From: Candidatus Thorarchaeota archaeon
Lineage (GTDB): Archaea > Asgardarchaeota > Thorarchaeia > Thorarchaeales > Thorarchaeaceae
Length of the DNA stretch: 13,620 bases
Direction of reading: 5' to 3'
NCBI GenBank assembly: GCA_003345595.1
Contig: PRDI01000112.1
Location: 1 to 13,620, forward strand
Of this stretch, positions 1-11,702 are shown one piece after another. The position numbers and the translations under genes are program-made. The number at the start of each line of letters is the position of its first letter. Within the stretch, counting starts at the first letter, position 1. Under the pieces are notes generated by a model. The model ran no database searches, had not been told where the DNA came from, and worked only from the letters and a program-made list of their open reading frames with translations.

Positions 1-123
1 TTGGTCAACTGGACTCGTTCTCGCATTCAGTTTCAAATCTCAACCCAGAGGCCCGGACAATTCAGGAAACTGCTAGAACAACCTGTATGTTATTATGTGG
101 GGAGTGACACTTGCTCCAATACC

Positions 124-978
124 ATGACTGGATCTCCAGAGGACGAAAAGCACGTCCGTTACATCTCACTGGTCAGAAAAGACGGAGGAGAACCCATCAT
201 AGGTATTCCATATCGTGAGATGAGCGTGGATCCAGACCTTGTCGCCAGCTTTGTGCTTGCCATAATCATTTTTGAGAACAGGCAGCTGACGAGGTTCGTG
301 AAAGAGGGCTACATCGTACTGATTGAAGAGGGCGAGCACGTTGTCGGACTGCTGATACTCGACAAGGTGGAGGACGAGGAGCAGTATAGGAAGGCATTGG
401 CGGGAATCATTGAGAAGTTTGAAACCAACTACAGCGCACAGCTCGCATACTGGAAGGGCGACATCAGACCCTTCAGGGAGTTCGCATTGTACATTCTCGG
501 CGTGTATCCTTACCGCCGCATCGACTGGGAAATGGTGCCGCATCTGCTGAACAGGTCTGAGGCAATGCCGGACCGTCAAGCATCGATTCCGTGGAGCGTG
601 GGAGAAACCGATAGGAAGATATCGAAGGTGACAGACTTCATCAACGGCAAGCGAACCATAGTTGAGATCATGGACTCGGCAGGCATGTCCCGCGAGGAAA
701 CTATAGCAATCATGTCAATGCTCGACCGTTACAACTGGGTCACATTCAGCAGAAAGATCACTGACAAGACAGTGCTAACGAAACTTACCAGTCCGCCACG
801 ATACCTCATTGGTGTCTACGGTGAGCAACTGCTCAAGGTGGTTGACCTCTTTGACGGCAGACGGACTGTGGCCGAAACGAGTGCCATGCTTCCGTACTCG
901 ATGGAGGTTCTTTTGACGCTGGTCAAGAACTTGGTTGATTCGGGGGTGCTTGGATTTCGTGAAAAAGCCGCAGAGTGA
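124..978 (+). CDS. Longin-domain + tandem winged-helix protein, NPRL2/NPRL3-like (paralog A)
   Basis: ATG at 124 (the ORF-track TTG at position 1 is just the window edge); 284 aa. N-terminal longin-like pattern (RYISLVRKDGGEPII...VDPDLVASFVLAI...YIVLIEEGEHVVGLLILD...KFETNY...WKGDIRPFREF). Two winged-helix-like repeats follow (FINGKRTIVEIMDSAGMSREETIAIMSMLDRYNWV and LFDGRRTVAET...LVKNLVDSGVL). Clear paralog immediately downstream. Confidence 0.7.
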   Translation: MTGSPEDEKHVRYISLVRKDGGEPIIGIPYREMSVDPDLVASFVLAIIIFENRQLTRFVKEGYIVLIEEGEHVVGLLILDKVEDEEQYRKALAGIIEKFETNYSAQLAYWKGDIRPFREFALYILGVYPYRRIDWEMVPHLLNRSEAMPDRQASIPWSVGETDRKISKVTDFINGKRTIVEIMDSAGMSREETIAIMSMLDRYNWVTFSRKITDKTVLTKLTSPPRYLIGVYGEQLLKVVDLFDGRRTVAETSAMLPYSMEVLLTLVKNLVDSGVLGFREKAAE

Positions 979-1039
979 GGACGAGAAACACGAACGAACT
1001 GGCCGGCCAAGTATTAGGTCATATTTGACCAAAGGGCGA

Positions 1040-1054
1040 GAAAAGCCTTATAAC
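1040..1054 (+). promoter_or_regulatory. Putative archaeal BRE-TATA promoter of paralog B
   Basis: GAAAAGCCTTATAAC (purine-rich BRE followed by TTATAA) about 75 nt upstream of ATG 1129; Shine-Dalgarno AGGTGA at 1118-1123. Confidence 0.55.
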
Positions 1055-1128
1055 ACGAGCAACTCGGCGGCACTGTCCCGACAAGCAGGCGGGGCGGTTT
1101 TTCCAACAGGAAAGCGCAGGTGACGTGA

Positions 1129-1959
1129 ATGCCGCTAGACGTGTCTAAGATAAGGTATGTTTCTTTGATTCGTCTTGAGGGCGGTGAATCAATCCTAAAC
1201 ATACCATACGCCGAGATGACTGTCGATCCGGACCTTATCGCAGGTTTCGTCACGGCGGTGATTATCTTTGCCAAGACACCGATAAGGACGATCCGGAAGG
1301 CGGCGTACGACATACTCATAGAAGTAGGCGAGACTGTTCTCGTGCTCCTTGTAGTTGACCCAGTTCCGGACGAAGCTCCCTACCGGGAACCGCTCAAGAG
1401 AATTCTAGGCCGCGTAGAGCTGGAACTTGGAGACAAAATCAAGGCCTTCGAAGGGGACATTCGGCGATTCAGAGAATTCGCCCTGCCGATACTCGAGGAG
1501 TTTCCGTTCTATGATGCAGACATCAACCTAGTCCCCATGCGTCGGAAGGACGGCATACCTGTGCCCTTCCGTGTGGGCACTATCGACAGCCGCCTTGAGA
1601 AGCTCGAGGCATTCACCAGTGGAAAGCGCACAATCGGAGAGATAATGGATCTCATCGGTCTGCCAGAAGTGGAGGTTCGGGCTCTTGTTTCAATCCTCTA
1701 CAAGTACAGGTGGATTGATTTCAGGAAGCGCTTGACTGAATCTGACCGACTGGTTCGGCGTGAGTGTTCGCGTCAGGTATTACAGAAGCTGCTATTGGAC
1801 TATGGTGACGACGTCGAGTACCTGTTGAGTGCCTTTGACGGTATGAAGCAGGTCAGAGATGTGCTGGGTTCTCTACAGCAATATGACAAGGGCGCCATCT
1901 GGTTTCTGATCAATAAGCTCGTCGAAGTTGGTTGCTTGAGTGTAGTCACTGGAGCTTAG
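1129..1959 (+). CDS. Longin-domain + tandem winged-helix protein, NPRL2/NPRL3-like (paralog B)
   Basis: 276 aa with SD AGGTGA. Collinear with paralog A (26 of the first 40 aligned residues identical, e.g. IPYxEMxVDPDL; later GDIRxFREFAL). Winged-helix repeats FTSGKRTIGEIMDLIGLPEVEVRALVSILYKYRWI and AFDGMKQVRDV...LINKLVEVGCL. Confidence 0.7.
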   Translation: MPLDVSKIRYVSLIRLEGGESILNIPYAEMTVDPDLIAGFVTAVIIFAKTPIRTIRKAAYDILIEVGETVLVLLVVDPVPDEAPYREPLKRILGRVELELGDKIKAFEGDIRRFREFALPILEEFPFYDADINLVPMRRKDGIPVPFRVGTIDSRLEKLEAFTSGKRTIGEIMDLIGLPEVEVRALVSILYKYRWIDFRKRLTESDRLVRRECSRQVLQKLLLDYGDDVEYLLSAFDGMKQVRDVLGSLQQYDKGAIWFLINKLVEVGCLSVVTGA

Positions 1960-2777
1960 AGTGGCACATCCATGCCTGGAATGCCCACAACGTCACTCCT
2001 GCATTGCTTGCAGTTCTGAAACTGGTTAATGTGGACCATGGCGTTCGTTCTTGCCTGCGCCAGTTCCATTGATGTGGGCGGCCGGCGACTTGACATGTTT
2101 GCATTCGGCACCAACGGGATGATGTTCTGTAGCTTAGCACCTGCCTCGGCGACGGCGCGCGAAAGGACACTTATTTCGGAGTCGTTAACACCGGGTATTA
2201 GTACGCTGTTCACTCTCACATGAATCCCCAGAGCACTGGCATCCCTTATCCCCTGTAGCTGCAGCGGTACCACCTTCTTGCCGAGTCTAGGCGCAAGAGT
2301 TCTAATTCCATCCAGCAGCGCCCATTCATAAATCAGGTCTGCAGTAGAGGATAGAGCAGCACTCATCGATACTGTAACAGTCTTGACACCAAGACACACC
2401 AGGCGAGAAGCCATCTCAGAGAGCAGGAAGCCATTGGTGCTCAAGCAGAACTCGACATGAGGCCTAAGATGCTTCACCCTTTCGAAGACTTCAAACGTTG
2501 TTGGACTCGCCAAGGCATCCCCCGGACCGGCAACTGCCACTATGTGAAGGTTGGGTCTTGAATCCATCTCAAGGACTGCTCTTTGAACCGCTTCGAAAGG
2601 TGTCATTATTCTTGCAGCATAACCAGGATGGATGGTATGACACGAAGTAGAGAGAGAATGACTGCAGTAGGCGCATTTCGCGTTGCAGACAGAAGCTACC
2701 GGGAGGTGGATTCGCTCCCATGCCTGACTGCACTTGTTTGACCAACATGGATGAAAGTCATATGGATACTCATTCAT
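1956..2777 (-). CDS. nifB: NifB-like radical SAM protein (stand-alone SAM domain, divergent)
   Basis: 273 aa with HPC, RIHLPVA, CNAKCAYC (CX3CX2C), AGPGDALA, CLSTNG, VNSVLIPGVND, NIIPL and C-terminal CKQCRSDVVG. These match the NifB family, but the ExRP and TxTxN motifs are altered. Confidence 0.85.
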   Translation of the reverse strand: MNEYPYDFHPCWSNKCSQAWERIHLPVASVCNAKCAYCSHSLSTSCHTIHPGYAARIMTPFEAVQRAVLEMDSRPNLHIVAVAGPGDALASPTTFEVFERVKHLRPHVEFCLSTNGFLLSEMASRLVCLGVKTVTVSMSAALSSTADLIYEWALLDGIRTLAPRLGKKVVPLQLQGIRDASALGIHVRVNSVLIPGVNDSEISVLSRAVAEAGAKLQNIIPLVPNANMSSRRPPTSMELAQARTNAMVHINQFQNCKQCRSDVVGIPGMDVPL

Positions 2778-2789
2778 CGACCATATCGC

Positions 2790-3200
2790 TCAGATGAGTT
2801 CTTGGAGGAGTCGACCAGCTTCTCGGGCAACACGCTTAGCATCGTTAAAAACCAGACCTATCTTCGCGTTCTCCGGGGAAGTGACAGTCAACAGGTATCC
2901 ACCGGTCACCGCAAGTACTAGAGTATTCCCCCCTTCGCCCTCAACTATGATCGACTTCAAAGAACCTTGCCGCAGTTCTCTCATGACCTGTTCGGCTGCA
3001 GAGTGAATGCCAGCCACCATAGCAGCGACGGCAGCGTCTTCTGTGCCCGCGTGGAAGTAGCTCACGACGGGATGACCTTCGACTGTGAAGACCGCTGCGC
3101 CAAGGATTGGAGAGTTGAGGCTCAGATCTCTAAGTAGCTCCTTTAGAAGACTCGGCACGTTATGAGCTCCCTGTGGGTTCAGGTGCCTGGTTTCTGTCAC
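2790..3200 (-). CDS. Roadblock/LC7 (MglB/LAMTOR-like) domain protein
   Basis: Typical roadblock pattern ILGAAVFTVEGHPVVS...VAAMVAGIHSAAEQVMRELRQGSLKSIIVEGEGGNTLV...LTV...AKIGLVFND. An alternative GTG start at 3158 is preceded by GGGAG. It ends 12 bp before the nifB-like start, so co-transcription is likely. Confidence 0.9.
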   Translation of the reverse strand: MTETRHLNPQGAHNVPSLLKELLRDLSLNSPILGAAVFTVEGHPVVSYFHAGTEDAAVAAMVAGIHSAAEQVMRELRQGSLKSIIVEGEGGNTLVLAVTGGYLLTVTSPENAKIGLVFNDAKRVAREAGRLLQELI

Positions 3201-3308: not shown

Positions 3309-4316
3309 CTAGCTAGTCAGCCTCAGTGACGTCACTGAGTCGCTATACAGCAGGTTCGTTGGCACCTTCATGATCCTGCGAACCTGAGTGGCTTGTTCGC
3401 TTAGTCCTGCTTTCTCCAGCATGTCGGCCAGCTCCATGCCTGTTGTTATCGCCAGCGCCTTCAGCGGTTTCGCTTGACGACAAGACTCAATCATCTCATC
3501 CGCAGGAACGACCTTGCACCGTAAGTTGATTCCCCGGACTTTCTCCAGCTGTTTGATGCCCTTCTTGGCAATTCCTCTGATCTCTCTTTGTTCCTCGGTG
3601 AACGTCTTCCTTTTCGCAATTCTCTCGAGTCGAGCGATGCCCCGTCCAATCAGATCCTCTGAAGTTAGCTGAGCGCCATAGAGTGAACGGACTGTCTTCA
3701 TCGTCGTAGTAACGAGCCAGGCAGAACCGTACGCCTCCTGGTACCTCATCGCCTTGACAACTTCAGATTCGCTCAGGAGAGTTACTGAACGGTAGCCCTT
3801 ATACTCGACACAGAGTGTCCAAGGTGGGTCATGATGCGTGATTATCAGATCGGGCGTGAGTCCCTCACCAGTCGTTGGAACACTCGTGCTGACGTCAGGG
3901 AACAGGTGAGAAACGAGCGCCAAGAACGACTGATGGAAGATGTTGTGGCGAAGATTCCTCGCCTCCTGAGGATGTCTGACACCTGCCTCTTGGTACAGCA
4001 CAGGCATCTCGCCTTTCCTTCCAGTGAGCTGACTGACCTGACTCTTGGTTGTTAGTCGCCCTCGCGACTGGTTATACCTTACAAGCCGGACTGCCGCCTC
4101 ATCTGCAATGAGATCGAACACCACCCTCCCGGTAGCTGATTCGCCGGCCTTCCCGTCCTCGCTCTCCCTGCGCCTAGCCTCTGCTTCAGCCCAGTCAATG
4201 ACTCGTTGGGCATCGTCTCCAAGCAGGCCTATTATGGACTGTAGCTTCTCCTGCAGGCCGTGTTTGTTGACGTACCTTCTCAGAGGCGTACTGTAGGTGA
4301 CCTTGAAACGCGTCAC
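3309..4316 (-). CDS. Hypothetical protein with PD-(D/E)xK restriction-endonuclease-like domain
   Basis: Motif GLTPDLII...LCVEYKGY...EVVKAMRY...AWLVTT. GTG at 4316 is preceded by GGAGTGA; the ORF extends upstream to another GTG at 4346. Confidence 0.65.
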   Translation of the reverse strand: MTRFKVTYSTPLRRYVNKHGLQEKLQSIIGLLGDDAQRVIDWAEAEARRRESEDGKAGESATGRVVFDLIADEAAVRLVRYNQSRGRLTTKSQVSQLTGRKGEMPVLYQEAGVRHPQEARNLRHNIFHQSFLALVSHLFPDVSTSVPTTGEGLTPDLIITHHDPPWTLCVEYKGYRSVTLLSESEVVKAMRYQEAYGSAWLVTTTMKTVRSLYGAQLTSEDLIGRGIARLERIAKRKTFTEEQREIRGIAKKGIKQLEKVRGINLRCKVVPADEMIESCRQAKPLKALAITTGMELADMLEKAGLSEQATQVRRIMKVPTNLLYSDSVTSLRLTS

Positions 4317-4362
4317 ATGCTCACTCCTTGACAAAAGCCAACTCACTGTGCGGCTGGCACTC

Positions 4363-4929
4363 TCAGAAGATATCCTTGATGAGCCTCACTTCTTGCGTCG
4401 CTTCCTCGTCGTAGGAAACAAGCTGGGCGTTCCGCAAATCATGGATAGCCTTCATGATCGCAGTGGACATTATTCCCGTGCTCGACTCTAGGTTCTTCCT
4501 GGTGATTGCAGTCTTAGTGTTGTGTAAAGTATAAAGCACGCGTGCATGTGGCTTGCCGCCGAAAACGGTTTCAATCAACGTTATGTATATCGCAAGCAGG
4601 TCACTTACGTCGACCTTCTCCTTCAGCTTATCCTTCTCCGTTGATGCCTCTCTATACAGTTCGGACACCCGTTGCAGCTGCTCGGTTATCTGAGCCATCT
4701 CGGCTTTCAATTCATCACGTTCCTTTGTCACTGAATCAACTACGCCTGACGTCCGCTCAGACTGAGCAAGCTTCTCTTTCAAGCTCGAGACCTCGTCAAC
4801 AGTGCGCGTCAGCTTGCTGTCGGCCTCAGCTTTCTGCCGCTTCGCTGTTTCGAGTTCATCTGCAAGCTTCGCGACTGATGTCTTGAGTCCGTCGATTTGT
4901 TCAAACACTTTCACTCTATCGGATGACAT
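4363..4929 (-). CDS. Coiled-coil protein with C-terminal winged helix-turn-helix
   Basis: 188 aa. About 105 aa of heptad-like K/E/L-rich helix, then PHARVLYTLH...ITRKNLESSTGI...IMKAIHDLRNAQLVSYDE, a wHTH pattern. SD-like GTGAGG upstream. Confidence 0.7.
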   Translation of the reverse strand: MSSDRVKVFEQIDGLKTSVAKLADELETAKRQKAEADSKLTRTVDEVSSLKEKLAQSERTSGVVDSVTKERDELKAEMAQITEQLQRVSELYREASTEKDKLKEKVDVSDLLAIYITLIETVFGGKPHARVLYTLHNTKTAITRKNLESSTGIMSTAIMKAIHDLRNAQLVSYDEEATQEVRLIKDIF

Positions 4930-4963
4930 ATGGCTGGCCTCACAGAATCATAGGCAGAGCCGC

Positions 4964-4977
4964 TTTATATGAGTTTC
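4964..4977 (-). promoter_or_regulatory. Putative BRE-TATA promoter for the coiled-coil/wHTH and nuclease genes
   Basis: Minus strand reads GAAACTCATATAAA, about 35 nt upstream of ATG 4929. Confidence 0.5.
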
Positions 4978-5077
4978 ATATCTTAGCTCCTGCATGTGAC
5001 CTTGACATACCGGGTGTGCTTGCCGTCAAACTCAGCCAATTGCGACTCGAGGGCGGCGTCCTCCTCAAATCCACACT

Positions 5078-5986
5078 CTACGCGAAGAGCAATGGAACAA
5101 GTACATAGCCCATTATCAGGAGCACAACCATAACAGACATCTGCAGCGCCCAAAGTTTCTTTCTCCACATGAATATCTTGGCACCGTCGAGAGGGGGAAA
5201 CGGAATCATGTTAAACAGCCCCAACATGGCGTTGAGTATAATTGCCCACCTCAGAATGGGGCCGAATGGGAAATGAATGCCACTCATAGCGAATGCAGAA
5301 ACAACTGTGATTACAAGGAGCCCAGAAGATATGATTGCATTCGAGAGCGGGCCTGCGAACGTTGACTTGGCGGCGTGATCAGGGTTCCCCGACATCTCGG
5401 TGAAGACCGCGCCTGTCCCGAACACGGGTACCGAGAGAAGAATGGCAAATGCGGACAGGTAGTACCCATAGGTGGTCATCCGGAACTCACTCCACATCCC
5501 ATAGTGCTGAGCTACGAGCTTGTGAGCCATCTCGTGAATTACAAACGAGGAGAGAAATACCACGACAAGCACCACAGGATACCACCAGTAGGCTGATGTC
5601 AGATAGTCGGCTACAACAGGCAGAGCCCCGAAGATGCCGTACGGACTTCCAAATAGGGAGAGAGCTACGAGCGTTACAAGTGCGCCTGCGATGAGAAGGT
5701 CTCTGATTTCCTTTCGAGAGAACCTACTCTTTCTTTCTGCTCTACGCACTTGAGGAATCCTTCGAGGAGGCGTGGGGGCTGTGACGTTCTCCTCTTCCTC
5801 CTCGTCCTCCTCTTCATACTCACCCGTGAATGAGTCTGCGATTTTTTTCCTTGCATCCTGTCTTGCTCTCTGCAGACTTGGACATCCATGACTCTCTGGC
5901 AATCTGTGTTCAGAGCAGTATGACCCGTTGCAGTAGGGACAGGTGAAGAGAAGTTCTTCTTGGCCACAGAGAGTACATCGTGCCAT
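5078..5986 (-). CDS. AN1-type zinc finger fused to an M50 family (site-2) intramembrane metalloprotease
   Basis: N-terminal CTLC...FTCPYCNGSYCSEHRLPESHGC (AN1 zinc finger), an acidic linker EEEDEEEEE and several TM segments. HEMAH (HExxH), AGPLSN and NMIPFPPLDG (NxxPxxxxDG) are the M50 motifs. Confidence 0.92.
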   Translation of the reverse strand: MARCTLCGQEELLFTCPYCNGSYCSEHRLPESHGCPSLQRARQDARKKIADSFTGEYEEEDEEEEENVTAPTPPRRIPQVRRAERKSRFSRKEIRDLLIAGALVTLVALSLFGSPYGIFGALPVVADYLTSAYWWYPVVLVVVFLSSFVIHEMAHKLVAQHYGMWSEFRMTTYGYYLSAFAILLSVPVFGTGAVFTEMSGNPDHAAKSTFAGPLSNAIISSGLLVITVVSAFAMSGIHFPFGPILRWAIILNAMLGLFNMIPFPPLDGAKIFMWRKKLWALQMSVMVVLLIMGYVLVPLLFA

Positions 5987-6303
5987 GTCACGCAGCCTCT
6001 GAACATTCAGTTTCGCGTTCGGTTCATTGCTCTTTCGCGTCTTGTTATATCAGTATTCATCCAGCCCCTTTCATATTTCTCCCGCGTCATCTGTTTTCAG
6101 AATCTGAAAGTAGGAAGCCGACGCTCAAGCGGATGCAGGTGGTTAAACAGCCATCATGGTCTTCGTCCGAAACTTTGGAGAGAAGCAGAGTGAGAGCTGA
6201 TTAGATAATGACTCGATGCCAGCACATTCATGATTGAATAGCTCGAACAGAGTGAAGACAGATTCTCTGAGAATTCAGTCAATTAGCAGAACGGTTTCGA
6301 CCT

Positions 6304-6317
6304 CAACGCTTATATGC
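6304..6317 (+). promoter_or_regulatory. Putative TATA box of the hsp20-cdc48 operon
   Basis: CAACGCTTATATGC, with TTATAT at 6310-6315, followed by an 11-bp direct repeat and a structured leader. Confidence 0.5.
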
Positions 6318-6320
6318 AAA

Positions 6321-6357
6321 ATGGTCCCTAGTGGCTAGTGTACAAGATGGTCCCTAG
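6321..6357 (+). repeat. 11-bp direct repeat ATGGTCCCTAG x2
   Basis: Exact copies at 6321-6331 and 6347-6357 (26-bp period). Confidence 0.85.
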
Positions 6358-6381
6358 ATAGGCGGCCTGATAGACTGTACA

Positions 6382-6430
6382 GAGGCCCGTAAGGTGACTC
6401 TTCGGGCGGCGACAAACCGCCCGGGGCCTC
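6382..6430 (+). other. GC-rich stem-loop in the predicted hsp20 5' leader
   Basis: GAGGCCC (6382-6388) pairs with GGGCCTC (6424-6430). CGGGCGG (6403-6409) pairs with CCGCCCG (6417-6423) around the loop CGACAAA. There is a 14-nt bulge on the 5' side. Confidence 0.6.
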
Positions 6431-6449
6431 AAAGCGGAGTGAGGACGAT

Positions 6450-6881
6450 ATGTTCGGAGATGATTTCTTCTCGGCAGTTGACAGGCTCATTGATGAGCTG
6501 ATGAGGGGTACAGCTATGCGTCAGGGCTGGAATGACCCTATCGGAGAGTCTGTTCAGGATGTCAGTGCGGACGAGGAGAATCAACCACACGTCGACACAA
6601 GTCCAGATGATGCAGAGTTGATAGACATGGGAGACAGCCTGCTGGTAGTCGTGAACTGCCCAATGGGAGTTGAAGCTCCGACGGCCAGAGTGCAGGGTCG
6701 TCAGCTCATAATCAGGCCCAGTGTCAATGACGAAAGGGACATTAAGTTGGAGCTTCCGTATACCATAGACGTCAAGAACTCACGCATGTCTTCGAGAAAT
6801 GGCGTAATTGAAATCCGACTGCCACGATTCAAGGCAGATGCAGGACGAAAGCAGAAGGATGGAGAAATACTGAGCGAGTAG
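6450..6881 (+). CDS. Small heat-shock protein (Hsp20/alpha-crystallin-like)
   Basis: 143 aa. Phe-rich N-terminus (MFGDDFFSAVDRLIDELM) and an alpha-crystallin-like core ELIDMGDSLLVVVNCPMG...LELPYTID...SSRNGVIEIRLPR. SD GGAGTGAGG. It lies 17 bp upstream of cdc48, a known archaeal gene pairing. Confidence 0.82.
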   Translation: MFGDDFFSAVDRLIDELMRGTAMRQGWNDPIGESVQDVSADEENQPHVDTSPDDAELIDMGDSLLVVVNCPMGVEAPTARVQGRQLIIRPSVNDERDIKLELPYTIDVKNSRMSSRNGVIEIRLPRFKADAGRKQKDGEILSE

Positions 6882-6898
6882 ATGGAGTGTGACGCTGG

Positions 6899-9088
6899 AT
6901 GACGGGAGAATCAGTTCGTTTGAAGGTTGCTGCAGCAATGCCAAGGGATCAGGGTCGTGGCATTGTAAGACTAAACACCGAAGTGCGAAGCCAGCTCGGC
7001 GTCGGGTCAGGAAGCTATGTGCTCGTCAAAGGACAGAGGGAAACTGTCGCTGTATGCTGGCCAAGCCTGAAAGAGGATGAAGCCATAGACATGATCAGGA
7101 TGGACAGCCTCATCAGAACCAACGCAGGCGTGAAACTAGGAGACGTTGTCGAGATTAGCAGTGTAACCGTGCCCGATGGAACTCGAGTTGTTCTGGCGCC
7201 CAGCCAACCCGTCAGGTTTCAGCCAGGCTTCGAGGAGTACATCAAGCAACAGATCATAAACAGACCAGTCACAAGGGGGGATCTTCTCCTTATTGCCTCC
7301 ATTGGACAGGGTCTCCAGTTCACCGCAACCGCAGTCGCTCCGAGCAAACATGTTCGCCTTACCCCTGCGACAAATGTCGAAGTGTTGACGAAGCCTGCAT
7401 CGGCTGAAGAGGTGTCAATACCGCAAGTGACATACGAGGACATTGGTGGCCTCGGAAAGGAACTGCAGAGAATTCGCGAAATGGTAGAGTTGCCAATGAA
7501 GTCCCCAGAGCTGTTCAAGCGTTTGGGTATCACTCCGCCAAAGGGAGTGCTGCTCATGGGGCCGCCTGGTACTGGCAAGACTCTCATCGCAAAAGCAGTA
7601 GCACATGAGTCAGGTGCAAACTTCAAGACGATCAACGGGCCTGAGATCATGTCGAAGTTCTATGGTGAGTCTGAACAGAAGCTGAGAGAGGTCTTCGAGG
7701 ATGCTGAGAAGAACGCTCCCAGTATCATATTCATTGATGAGCTGGACAGTATTGCCCCCAAGCGAGCAGACGTGACTGGAGAAGTCGAGCGAAGGGTGGT
7801 CGCGCAACTGCTTGCGCTCATGGATGGCCTCCAAGCTCGGGGACAGGTCATTGTCATTGGTGCCAGCAATCGGCCTGATGACATCGACCCTGCGCTGAGA
7901 AGACCGGGCAGGTTCGACAGAGAGATTGAGATTGGCGTCCCTGACAAGAAGGGCCGCTTGGAGATACTCCAGATTCACACAAGATCTATGCCATTGGAAG
8001 AAGGCATAGACCTCGAGAGGCTTGCGGCAATAACCCATGGCTTCGTGGGTGCCGACCTTGCCGCGCTCGCAAGAGAAGCGGCCATGCAAGCATTACGCAG
8101 AGCACTCCCGCATGTGGACCCTGAAACCGGTGACATCCCTCCAGAGATACTCAACAGCCTCTATGTCACAAAGGCAGACTTCGACCTAGCCCTGTCAGAG
8201 GTTTCGCCGTCAGCTCTACGGGAGGTCCTGGTTGAGAAGCCAAATGTGCGCTGGGACGACATTGGAGGACTTGCCAAAGTGAAATCCCAGCTGAGAGAGG
8301 CCGTTGAAGCGCCCCTCATGCATCCAGACGTATACAGTGGTATGGGTATCCGAACCCCCAAGGGCATTCTACTCTTTGGACCGCCGGGAACCGGCAAGAC
8401 TCTGCTCGCAAAAGCAGTTGCCACAGAGAGCGAGGCGAATTTCATCGCCATCAAAGGCCCGGAGATGTTTAACAAGTATGTGGGCGAGTCGGAGAAGGCT
8501 GTTCGCGAGATATTCAAGAAAGCCCGGCAGACTGCACCGTGCATCCTATTCTTCGATGAGATTGATGCAATCCTGAACACTCGCGCATTGCGCTCTGACG
8601 ATTCAGGTGTCAGTCAGAGGATCATAAATCAGTTCTTGGCAGAGATTGATGGCATGCAGACACTCCAGAATGTCCTGGTGATTGGGGCGACAAACAGGGC
8701 AGACATGCTTGACCCAGCTGCACTGAGGCCGGGCAGGTTTGACGCAGTGCTTTTTGTACCTCCACCTGACATGGCAGCCAGATTAGAGATCCTAAAGGTT
8801 CACACAAGAAGGATGCCTCTCTCGAAGGACGTGAACCTAGAGAAGCTTGCAGAGATGACCGAGGGTTTCTCGGGTGCGGATATTGAAGGACTATGCAGAG
8901 AAGCGGCCATGTCTGCTGTCCGAGATGACTGGAAGGTCAAGCCAGTCCAGATGAAGAACTTCGAGAGTGCACTAAAGGAGATAAGGCCGAGCATCATGCC
9001 TGAGGACCTCAAGAGATTCCAAGAGATGGCAGAGCTCGTCCTCCGACGTCAGCCACAAAGAACCGAAACTCTCCCCGGGTATGTATAG
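6899..9088 (+). CDS. cdc48: CDC48/p97/VAT family double AAA+ ATPase
   Basis: 729 aa. N-domain with [10 protein letters not shown] and [17 protein letters not shown]. Two Walker A motifs (GPPGTGKT), Walker B motifs IIFIDE and ILFFDE, SRH motifs ALRRPGRFD and ALRPGRFD, and a C-terminal ...PGYV. Confidence 0.98.
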
Positions 9089-9097
9089 GCTCTTGAT

Positions 9098-9157
9098 GAC
9101 TCAGACAGCGCTGCCGCGAGAACAGTTCAAACGCCATGGCAGCGCTCGTCGGGAGTT
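9098..9157 (+). other. Long stem-loop downstream of cdc48 (possible 3' stabiliser or terminator)
   Basis: GACAGCGCTGCC (9104-9115) pairs with GGCAGCGCTCGTC (9138-9150) with one bulge; the stem extends with GACTC/GAGTT. Confidence 0.5.
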
Positions 9158-9221
9158 GCTTCACCTCCAAGTGCGGGCAACACTCATAAGCGGCAGATGA
9201 CCCCGCCCTAGGTGACCGTCC

Positions 9222-11702
9222 ATGGCTGACCGATGGGTGTTGAATGTCTGCCCGTTTCTGCATTTTGACAACTCAAGGTCACAAACATACGAGCACTACG
9301 TGAGCATCGCATCGTGGAATGTCAAGAGCGTGCTTGATTACCTTGATGTCGATACATCACACAAGTTCGCACTCGACCAGGTGACTCTCCTTGAAGGCTT
9401 CAAGAGGCTGTTCCCAAACTATTGGGACCTGCTACACCAACGAGTCCTCGAGGGCCGCATTGAGATAGTCGGTGGCACCTATGTCATGCCTGACTTCGTG
9501 ATTCCGGATGGGGAGTCCATAGCCCGACAGTTCCTGTACGGAGTGAAGTTCTTCAGAGAGGAACTCGGAATCGATGTTCGAACGGGCTGGGCAGTCGATT
9601 CCATGGGTCATCCTTCCCAGATGCCTCAGATACTAAGACAATGTGGGATTGACTCCTATTACTTCTGGAGAGGAATGCCATTCAAAGCCCGAAGTGAGTT
9701 CGTGTGGAAAGCCCCTGATGGCAGCCGGGTCATTGCTGTCTGGCTGCCTCTGGGCTATGATTGTGCTGCTTGGCTCTCGGAGAACACAAGAGAGGCCTTC
9801 ACAAGTATTCTTCACATAGTCGATGAGACCGGTCCTCGCGCAGTTTCCAATAATCTGTTTGTTCCTGTCGGCGGTGAACTTGTTCCGCCTCTGCCTCATC
9901 TCACGGACATAGCGGGCCAATGGAATAAGACGTTCCCAGATATGCGCATGGTAATTGCCAACCCTCGCGAGTTCACTGAAAGGGCAAAGGCTGTACAAGC
10001 CAGAATGCCGGTCATTCAAGGAGGCTTCTATGGGGGACACCTGTCGCCGTTGCCATCGGGAGGACTCAGTGCCCGAGTCAAGCTCAAGATCATGAATAGA
10101 CGCCTCGAAACCCTGCTATATCTTGCTGAGCTCTACATGAGCACGAGCGAGATACATGATAAGAGTGCTACACTTGACAACATCTGGAGGGTTCTTCTCT
10201 TCAACCAAGATCATAACATCATACGAGGGGCACTTGCAGACGAGCCGTTCAGACTAGCTGTCCGCAGGTATCAGCAGGCGATTTCACAAGCCGAGGAGAT
10301 GCTTGAAGACGCTGTGGAAAAGACTACTGCGCGGATTGCGCAGCCCCCAGAGAACCCCTCGTATGTTGTATTCAACCCGGTGCCTTGGACGCGGAGCGAT
10401 TTCGTGCATGTGCCTGTGGATATGACTAGAATACCGACTGGTCAGTTCGAAGTGCGGGATCCCGAAGGACACAGCATTCCGTATCAGCGCATCAGTGAAA
10501 CCCCTGAAACAACCCCAACCGAGATAGGCTTCATCGCCAGCGACCTTCCTTCTCTCGGTTACAGGGTTTACTCGGTTGTGCCGGTTGAGAAATCACCCGA
10601 TTTTCCATCTACGATCAAGTCTGGCAGGAACTGGATTGAGAGCGATCAATTCATACTGGAGTTCGACGAGTTCAGCGGCGCAATCACTCGTTTCCACGAC
10701 AAGACCACTCAAGCTGAGCTACTACACGGGTACGCGAACTACATCTCAATGGAGAGCGATGTGGGAGACCTCTACAGACATGATACTGCGCGGTGTTCGT
10801 GCAGCGACTCAGAACCCACCACGCTCCGCTTCCCGGGCAAATTCTCGGTAGTCCAATCAGGGCCAGTGCGCTCAGCCATTGAGGTTTCTGGCGACTTCAA
10901 CGGGTGCAAGCGTAGACAACGTGTCATAGTTTACCAGGGACTCAGAAGGGTCGACCTAGAAACTGATATTGATTTCAAGGGACAAGAGAAGTGCGTGCGG
11001 GCCAACTTCCCACTGAACGTCTACACGGACCATGTGACGGTAGGTTCACAATTTGCAGCAGAGACAAGGTTCCCAGGATCCAGTGATTATGCTCCAGACG
11101 CGGGTAGCAGAGTATTCTCTGCGCTAGACTGGGTTGACTGCACCGGACCCGAAACAGGCCTTTGCGTTTCAACGTTGGGTCTACACGAGTTCGAGTTCTC
11201 GAATGGCCTCCTTCGCATCACTCTCCTGCGAAGCGTCAATTACCTGTCACGCGGCGAGGATGATGACATAGTGGAAACCGACGCGGCACGGGAGATTGGC
11301 TCACACAGCTTCCGTATCGCACTGATACCTCACCAAGGCAAGTGGGACGAGGCGAGAGTGTGGAAATCATCAACAGAACATCGACTGCCACTGATTGCAT
11401 GTCCAAAGGCAGAAGGTCAGGGTGAGTTGCCAGCTGAGGCCTCCTTCCTTGAGATTGACGATGGCGAACTAGCGCTGTCATGTTTCAAACCAACTGACGA
11501 CCCGAAGGAGTTCATTGTCAGGGTGTACGATGTGCACGGAAACGGAGGGCGCATGGCCCTCAAGTTCAACCGTGATGTTGAAGGTGCCAAGCTAGTCGAC
11601 ATGTGCGAGAGAAACATAGGACAATTGTCTGTTGATGGACGCGTGGTTCGTCTACCCATGGTTGCTCACTCAATATGCACCATTCGAGTGAAGATGAAGT
11701 GA
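9222..11702 (+). CDS. Glycoside hydrolase family 38 (alpha-mannosidase-like)
   Basis: 826 aa, SD AGGTGA at 9210-9215. Motifs HFD, GRIEIVGGTYVMPD...DGESIARQFLYG, GWAVDSMGH...MPQIL, EFVWKAPDGSRV, NQDHNIIRG, VVFNPVPWTR, LPSLGYRVY and LRITLLRS match the GH38 N-terminal, middle and C-terminal domains. Confidence 0.92.
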   Translation: MADRWVLNVCPFLHFDNSRSQTYEHYVSIASWNVKSVLDYLDVDTSHKFALDQVTLLEGFKRLFPNYWDLLHQRVLEGRIEIVGGTYVMPDFVIPDGESIARQFLYGVKFFREELGIDVRTGWAVDSMGHPSQMPQILRQCGIDSYYFWRGMPFKARSEFVWKAPDGSRVIAVWLPLGYDCAAWLSENTREAFTSILHIVDETGPRAVSNNLFVPVGGELVPPLPHLTDIAGQWNKTFPDMRMVIANPREFTERAKAVQARMPVIQGGFYGGHLSPLPSGGLSARVKLKIMNRRLETLLYLAELYMSTSEIHDKSATLDNIWRVLLFNQDHNIIRGALADEPFRLAVRRYQQAISQAEEMLEDAVEKTTARIAQPPENPSYVVFNPVPWTRSDFVHVPVDMTRIPTGQFEVRDPEGHSIPYQRISETPETTPTEIGFIASDLPSLGYRVYSVVPVEKSPDFPSTIKSGRNWIESDQFILEFDEFSGAITRFHDKTTQAELLHGYANYISMESDVGDLYRHDTARCSCSDSEPTTLRFPGKFSVVQSGPVRSAIEVSGDFNGCKRRQRVIVYQGLRRVDLETDIDFKGQEKCVRANFPLNVYTDHVTVGSQFAAETRFPGSSDYAPDAGSRVFSALDWVDCTGPETGLCVSTLGLHEFEFSNGLLRITLLRSVNYLSRGEDDDIVETDAAREIGSHSFRIALIPHQGKWDEARVWKSSTEHRLPLIACPKAEGQGELPAEASFLEIDDGELALSCFKPTDDPKEFIVRVYDVHGNGGRMALKFNRDVEGAKLVDMCERNIGQLSVDGRVVRLPMVAHSICTIRVKMK

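Follow-up and report, generated by a model that had tools for sequence, protein, structure and literature searches.

The locus considered here lies at the left end of the window, that is, the whole stretch of DNA that was analysed, which corresponds to the full length of contig C112 (13,620 bp) in a Thorarchaeaceae metagenome-assembled genome (MAG; 2.73 Mb, 129 contigs, 83% complete). Two NPRL2/NPRL3-like longin genes, lg1 and lg2, run there towards a NifB-like radical S-adenosylmethionine (SAM) gene and a Roadblock/LC7 gene encoded on the opposite strand. The locus is probably best understood as two juxtaposed units within a collinear core block of the Thorarchaeaceae, and not as one proven sensing module. 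We propose that the first unit is a co-transcribed tandem, lg1-lg2, whose products would form a heterodimer through their longin domains, as Nprl2-Nprl3 do, and would regulate an Arf-like small GTPase whose gene lies in another part of the genome, either as a GTPase-activating protein (GAP), as an exchange factor for guanine nucleotides (GEF) or as a scaffold. The second unit would be the minus-strand array Fcc188-E345-Roadblock, to which the NifB-like gene may have been added in the Thorarchaeaceae ancestor, 6-14 bp downstream of Roadblock and at the convergent junction with the longin gene. The NifB-like enzyme is predicted to bind three [4Fe-4S] units and to perform NifB-type SAM-dependent cluster chemistry for a user yet to be found.

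Gene order within and beyond the Thorarchaeaceae

The gene lg1 (124-978, plus strand) encodes a NPRL2/NPRL3-like protein of 284 amino acids with an N-terminal longin domain and two winged-helix domains; its frame is open up to the contig start, and the ATG at 124 agrees with the starts of the orthologues. The second paralog of this type, lg2 (1129-1959, plus strand, 276 amino acids), meets the NifB-like gene (1956-2777, minus strand) in a convergent overlap of stop codons at 1956-1959. The four bases TTAG, read directly from the sequence, provide TAG on the plus strand as the stop of lg2 and TAA on the minus strand as the stop of the NifB-like gene, which encodes a single-domain enzyme of 273 amino acids with three predicted Fe-S cluster sites. 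A spacer of 12 bp (2778-2789), across which co-transcription is probable, separates it from the upstream Roadblock/LC7 gene (2790-3200, minus strand, 136 amino acids, GTG start). All four open reading frames, the 12-bp spacing and the 4-bp overlap had been placed correctly by the first-pass annotation, and its domain calls were borne out by Pfam, TIGR and an AlphaFold2 (AF2) model.

The same annotation had proposed a nutrient- or redox-sensing module, with the reservation that convergent adjacency may arise by chance and that linkage restricted to this genome would speak against the idea. Neither reservation applies. The order lg1, lg2 and then, on the opposite strand, NifB-like, Roadblock, E345 and Fcc188 is near-universal in the Thorarchaeaceae: a full NifB-like gene lies between lg2 and Roadblock in 52 of the 54 loci with enough downstream sequence, and the linkage is found in more than 50 species-level genomes belonging to 16 genera of this one family. 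The 4-bp stop overlap recurs in 32 of 55 orthologous loci, and the gap between the NifB-like and Roadblock genes has a median of 9.5 bp (range -1 to 49, 52 loci). The arrangement is not due to chance. However, synteny alone is uninformative here, because about 20 kb of flanking unrelated genes, including those for Alg13/14, a PD-(D/E)xK protein, a transglutaminase, an AmmeMemoRadiSam radical SAM protein and DUF2797, are equally collinear.

The one sister-family genome available (G311, family f2 of the same order, 96% complete) was more informative for the history of the locus. Its block begins with the transglutaminase, a coiled-coil/winged helix-turn-helix (wHTH) protein, the AmmeMemoRadiSam radical SAM protein and DUF2797, and continues with a single longin gene facing convergent Roadblock, E345 and Fcc188 genes; no NifB-like gene was detected in G311 at an E value of 1e-20, either at the locus or genome-wide. 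Most simply, these gene orders would mean that the Thorarchaeaceae ancestor gained the NifB-like gene by insertion at the convergent junction, just downstream of a Roadblock gene that already stood there. Among other Asgard lineages, 11 NifB-like loci gave no tblastn match to the Roadblock or longin proteins of the window, and the neighbours scanned at seven of them include two NifH genes (one with a NifD-like gene beside it), hydrogenase subunits, TFIIB and an integrase. Longin homologues outside the Thor order have neither Roadblock nor NifB as a neighbour. We therefore found no linkage beyond the background collinearity or in independent lineages, and a comparison of gene neighbourhoods across the Asgard archaea, as suggested by the first-pass annotation, gave a divided answer: the order is conserved across the Thorarchaeaceae, yet it is confined to that family and the NifB-like gene is missing in the sister family. 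Another genome of the family (G368, a 'one-contig' genome), considered as a possible case of Roadblock without the NifB-like gene or lg1/lg2, was rejected as uninformative because a scaffold gap of 100 N directly adjoins its Roadblock gene.

The longin pair and its probable relation to small GTPases

The two longin proteins are 37% identical to each other across their full length, as expected for paralogs, and lg1 orthologues from 63 loci are 56-65% identical. An AF2 model of lg2, built on an alignment of 22 family members, has a mean predicted local distance difference test (pLDDT) score of 90. In this model residues 6-127 form a longin fold with the order strand-strand-helix-strand-strand-strand-helix-helix (strands 8-15, 21-26, 54-57, 60-66 and 70-76; helices 34-47, 83-106 and 112-124), with two wHTH domains behind it. 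The N-terminal domain can be superposed on the longin domain of Sec22b (Z 15.1, root mean square deviation 2.2 over 118 residues) and on that of the Loki Roadblock-Longin protein 8yqg (Z 12.5), and the best full-length Foldseek matches of lg2 are NPRL2, NPRL3 and Npr2 in GATOR1/SEAC structures (E 2.5e-7 to 1e-4). The best PDB match of the longin family profile is residues 157-257 of human NPRL2 (E 8e-4), and Pfam HTH_NPRL3 matches lg1 weakly and under threshold (E 0.0098). A NPRL2-like family has already been reported in 'most Thor MAGs' (Liu et al. 2020, bioRxiv 10.1101/2020.10.19.343400), and lg1 and lg2 are members of this published Asgard family. The pair is thus not an undescribed kind of protein, and for the longin genes themselves the earlier idea of a system not yet described does not stand.

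With regard to their origin, a maximum-likelihood tree placed the lg1 clade (support 98/98) as sister to the lg2 clade (99/99), with a support of 88/71 for the sister relationship, and kept the lone sister-family copy, like every other Asgard homologue, outside lg1+lg2. On this tree lg1 and lg2 are the products of a lineage-specific duplication, within or at the base of the Thorarchaeaceae, and consequently would not be one-to-one orthologues of NPRL2 and NPRL3; the duplication resembles that of NPRL2/NPRL3 and is not orthologous to it. A gap of 3 bp or less between lg1 and lg2 in 20 of 58 loci suggests that the pair forms an operon.

The comparison with GATOR1 has two sides. Like NPRL2/NPRL3 (Npr2/Npr3 in yeast), lg1 and lg2 have an N-terminal longin domain followed by winged helices, are two paralogs that are expected to pair, and find in NPRL2/NPRL3 their best full-length structural match and, in human NPRL2, their profile match. 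Unlike these, they are much shorter (276-284 amino acids), their duplication is specific to the Thorarchaeaceae, and they carry GGE in place of GP and no assignable arginine finger. The GP motif, defined as the mark of GAP-type longins (PMC12290439), lies in the loop before strand 2, where both proteins have an invariant G18-G19-E20 (GGES in lg2 and GGEP in lg1). Two arginines, R53 and R56, are conserved among lg2 orthologues between helix 1 and strand 3; in the wider family alignment no invariant arginine occurs in this region, and only R86 reaches 90%.

As the first-pass annotation had noted, the window contains no GTPase, and its suggestion that one might be found in the left flank of the pair, followed up in a closed Thor chromosome, was not borne out, with none in the 9-10 kb encoding DUF2797, the AmmeMemoRadiSam radical SAM protein, the coiled-coil/wHTH protein, the transglutaminase, the PD-(D/E)xK protein and Alg13/Alg14. 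An exhaustive search of longin-family homologues, which yielded 57 representative clusters in all, included two (P0138 and P0154, of 626 and 652 amino acids) in which an N-terminal domain, an Arf-like GTPase and the longin module are fused. The genome studied here encodes a fusion of the same kind, a 653-amino-acid Arf-like GTPase/longin-module protein with G1, G3 and G4 motifs (C102:19276-21243), beside a 573-amino-acid protein that has a longin module at its C-terminus and lacks GTPase motifs. Finally, in genomes of two other Asgard families (G005, family f5; G123, family f17) a longin homologue is part of a same-strand cluster with an Arf-like GTPase. These observations tie the longin family to Arf-like small GTPases in three independent ways. 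The nine small-GTPase genes of this genome match Gtr1_RagA only weakly, so that the longin-associated GTPases, unlike the setting of GATOR1, are Arf-like rather than clearly Rag. DEPDC5/Iml1 (PF12257) was not found in this genome by a search that gave no match in control genomes either.

Some details of these additional loci may be recorded here. The fusion and its neighbour constitute a second tandem longin-module pair of the genome (G000 contig C102:19276-23063, minus strand; locus L121:5274-9049), flanked by genes for a cytosine-5 DNA methyltransferase and a beta-CASP nuclease. The genes that lie between the GTPase and the longin homologue in G005 and G123 encode proteins of 176-180 amino acids, which are not similar to each other and were rejected as Roadblock proteins (hhalign probability 0.2).

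The NifB-like enzyme and the Roadblock protein

The NifB-like protein scores 201.5 bits against TIGR01290 (nifB), below the equivalog cut-off of 343.65; the match spans only positions 12-279 of a model of 441 positions. At the same time it is about 40% identical over its full length to the solved single-domain NifB structures 6Y1X (E 1.4e-52) and 7BI7, with which the residues C31/C35/C38, C11/C46/C111 and H24/C256/C259 align. Among 23 Thor orthologues of about 50% identity, the radical SAM cysteines C31/C35/C38, as well as C11/C111 and H24/C256/C259, are invariant and C46 is 90% conserved. We take the ligands of the K1 cluster to be C11 (in HPC), C46 (after the SAM motif) and C111 (in CxSTNG), and those of K2 to be H24 (in RxH) and C256/C259 (in the C-terminal CxxC). 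The HPC, CLSTNG and CxxCRSD motifs are likewise invariant or nearly so. Since ligands and motifs are maintained across orthologues that have diverged to about 50% identity, the alignment indicates that the protein is under purifying selection as a three-cluster enzyme; and because all radical-SAM, K1 and K2 ligands are kept, it most likely still binds three [4Fe-4S] clusters and carries out NifB-type chemistry. The protein thus resembles the single-domain NifB enzymes of Methanothrix thermoacetophila (6Y1X) and Methanothermobacter thermautotrophicus (7BI7/7JMB) in length class, in its CxxxCxxC motif and in all K1/K2 ligands. It differs from them in falling under the equivalog cut-off, in a host family where NifDK/EN-type proteins, McrC and Mmp7 were not found in the genomes searched, and in being encoded downstream of a Roadblock gene, a context found for no other NifB searched.

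Within the Thorarchaeaceae 71 of 85 genomes carry the gene, as against 11 of about 315 other Asgard genomes, and the top 120 matches listed in a homologue search were all Thor-type sequences. Methanogens that have no nitrogenase still cannot do without NifB, which is also widespread among Asgard archaea, and in the methyl-coenzyme M reductase (MCR) activation complex the [8Fe-9S-C] clusters are carried by McrC and Mmp7 (PMC12176620). This complex offers a precedent for a need of NifB where nitrogenase is absent. Unlike in that case, its users were not found in the Thorarchaeaceae: McrC was found in 0 of 86 family genomes and Mmp7 in 0 of the 13 family genomes searched, with positive controls in methanogens. 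Nitrogenase component-1 type proteins (NifDK/EN; PF00148) were not found in any of the 86 family genomes, NifH gave no match over the cut-off in this genome, and Mmp5 (TIGR03271) was found in 0 of 21 genomes. The protein is therefore a NifB relative without any known product user among the users searched.

Some side observations concern the NifB-like genes. The recorded protein (P0183) has only 216 amino acids and appears to begin at the internal Met58, thereby losing HPC and CxxxCxxC; the start at 2777, which gives 273 amino acids, is backed by the orthologues. In a few genomes the gene is split into two frames or is partly matched (G333:C4:270770-271577; G395:C87:7050-7851; L056:4435-4914; L065:10837-11331; also G317), which may reflect sequencing or assembly errors or real decay. 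At two loci of other Asgard genomes (L103:4247-8837 in G007 and L106:938-2644 in G077) the NifB-like gene stands directly beside a NifH-family gene, and G007 adds a single NifD-like (Oxidored_nitro) gene and a flavodiiron-type protein, resembling a nitrogenase-like (Nfl/Mar-type) cluster.

The Roadblock protein matches PF03259 over residues 20-107 (E 9.4e-12, 45 bits against a cut-off of 23); its orthologues are 53-67% identical, and that of the sister family 33%. A Pfam Roadblock domain is what it shares with the known Roadblock regulators (MglB, LAMTOR/Ragulator and the Asgard Roadblock proteins of PDB 9jq8 and 9jue), and in being encoded beside a longin protein it recalls the eukaryotic Rag-Ragulator-GATOR setting. 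It differs in that no GTPase adjoins it and that its nearest neighbour in the probable operon codes for a radical SAM enzyme. Structure prediction of a NifB-like/Roadblock complex gave a score of 0.00, which is no verdict and counts neither way. In the wetland metatranscriptome X7 (Logan contigs), short contigs covered lg1 (270-411 and 577-789), E345 and Fcc188, with none on lg2, NifB-like or Roadblock and none across the gene junctions; the uncovered stretches prove nothing.

Alternative readings of the locus

That the Roadblock protein is dedicated to the NifB-like enzyme alone, for instance as a dimeric scaffold, a localiser or a regulator of the enzyme or its user, with the longin pair unrelated, appears unlikely, even with an operon-like spacing and a pair that is retained wherever the NifB-like gene exists in the Thorarchaeaceae. 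Some 55 nt upstream of Roadblock, a TATA-like element read by eye suggests a promoter of its own for this pair and would suit such a partnership. However, should the sister-family state be ancestral, Roadblock would have occupied this site before the NifB-like gene did; no Roadblock accompanies the NifB homologues of other contexts; and our literature search found no paper linking NifB with Roadblock or with Thorarchaeota. The absence of any conserved cysteine from the Roadblock alignment makes a role as cluster carrier unlikely.

We regard as more doubtful the reading of all four genes as one sensing circuit, in which the Fe-S/SAM state of the NifB-like enzyme (iron, redox or SAM supply) would reach a small GTPase by way of Roadblock and the longin heterodimer. 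This reading can draw on the adjacency of the four genes in nearly all informative loci over 16 genera, on the 6-14 bp between Roadblock and the NifB-like gene, on the fusions and operons that link the longin family to Arf-like GTPases, and on the fact that a longin gene and Roadblock adjoin in the sister family too. Yet that family keeps longin and Roadblock without the NifB-like enzyme, the unrelated flank is as collinear as the four genes themselves, none of the 11 NifB-like loci of other Asgard lineages matches this Roadblock, their neighbours including NifH, NifD-like, hydrogenase subunits and TFIIB, and the longin homologues outside the Thor order lack both neighbours. Moreover, the Roadblock unit runs towards the longin pair, so that a single transcript of both is impossible. 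A more specific form of this idea, according to which a NifB-type cluster-fusing enzyme was recruited into the Roadblock arm of a longin/Roadblock GTPase switch, so that iron-sulfur, SAM or redox would gate a proto-GATOR/Ragulator-like circuit, seems to us quite improbable. The proposal that a GTPase circuit operates here consequently fared differently for its two parts: for the longin proteins it gained ground from the Arf-like fusions and from the GTPase operons of two other Asgard families, and for the wiring of an Fe-S/SAM enzyme into that circuit it is unsupported, given the sister family, the differing contexts in other Asgard archaea and the collinearity of about 20 kb. A functional link between the Fe-S enzyme and a longin/Roadblock circuit is, in any of these forms, improbable.

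Least probable is that the NifB-like protein no longer performs NifB chemistry, being a radical SAM enzyme with another substrate or a decaying relic carried in the block, for which its score well under the cut-off, the failure to find known L-cluster users (PF00148, McrC and Mmp7) and the split or partial copies could be invoked, against the near-invariance of all nine cluster ligands and of the motifs, which points to purifying selection, the possibility that the split copies are assembly errors, and the need for NifB in methanogens without nitrogenase (PMC12176620).

Several points also weigh against the reading that we favour, namely two juxtaposed units. Just one sister-family genome was available, so that the NifB-like gene may have been lost there rather than gained in the Thorarchaeaceae, and a Roadblock/NifB-like spacing of 6-14 bp held over 16 genera, at a protein identity of about 50%, also suits a real partnership. 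The fusions and clusters tie GTPases to other longin modules and not to lg1 and lg2 themselves, and the GAP activity of these two proteins is uncertain, because GP is replaced by GGE and no invariant arginine finger can be assigned. The protein contacts and the co-transcription of this reading are predictions.

The remaining genes of the window lie on the far side of Roadblock. E345 (3309-4346, minus strand), its upstream neighbour, has no Pfam match; its AF2 model (pLDDT 86) contains a nuclease-like alpha/beta core of PD-(D/E)xK type between long helical regions, with weak Foldseek matches to restriction endonucleases (E at least 0.03) and an invariant D166...E181-x-K183. Among the genomes searched it was found only in the Thor order, the sister family included, and not in five other Asgard genomes. 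Only weak nuclease-fold matches were obtained, E345 was rejected as a GTPase or a longin/Roadblock protein, and it is probably outside the proposed module. Fcc188 (4363-4929, minus strand), 16 bp upstream of E345, is the first gene of the array Fcc188-E345-Roadblock-NifB-like and encodes a coiled coil with a probable C-terminal winged helix; its only Pfam matches are to coiled coils, with weak matches to TFIIE_alpha/MreA, and the gene is retained at 45 loci as well as in the sister family. Its similarity to the upstream coiled-coil/wHTH protein of other Thor genomes is at coiled-coil level only (E 0.06), which does not show paralogy.

Further to the right (5078-11702) the window encodes an AN1-zinc-finger/M50 protease, an Hsp20-like protein, Cdc48 and a GH38 mannosidase, in an order kept in several Thor genomes. 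In most Thor genomes topoisomerase VI A and B stand between Fcc188 and the AN1-M50 protease gene (L009:13898-16716), and this insert of about 3 kb is missing here (4930-5077) and in a minority of loci (e.g. L002, L006, L046, L050, L059, L065 and L066). At the left end, a DNA contig of the wetland run X1 matches the window from position 80 rightwards and continues leftwards with sequence unlike the first 79 bases (window 1-80), so that the window start may be strain-variable or a misassembled contig end. The gene two upstream of lg1 in other Thor genomes (L009:7007-8981) encodes the AmmeMemoRadiSam radical SAM protein (TIGR04337, 306 bits, above cut-off), followed by DUF2797. Nine proteins of this upstream flank, searched in the present assembly, returned only a 35%-identical radical SAM paralog (C129) and a weak 23% match (C2).

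This locus also carries a caution about synteny, in that a strict gene order within one lineage showed no functional link here, and one sister-family genome together with a few distant neighbourhoods changed the reading of the locus. If the NifB-like enzyme were nevertheless coupled to its neighbours, the NifB family would have in Roadblock, or in the longin heterodimer, its first partner other than nitrogenase and MCR, and a close relative of eukaryotes would possess a proto-GATOR/Ragulator-like circuit gated by Fe-S, SAM or redox. A NifB-like enzyme that is under selection in a family without known L-cluster users would point to an undiscovered metalloprotein or to an altered carbide-cluster chemistry. 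The longin pair, together with the GTPase-fused paralogs of the same genome, offers a tractable archaeal stand-in for Nprl2-Nprl3, and the question of whether Arf-like GTPases are regulated by Asgard NPRL2-like proteins is relevant to how nutrient signalling arose in eukaryotes.

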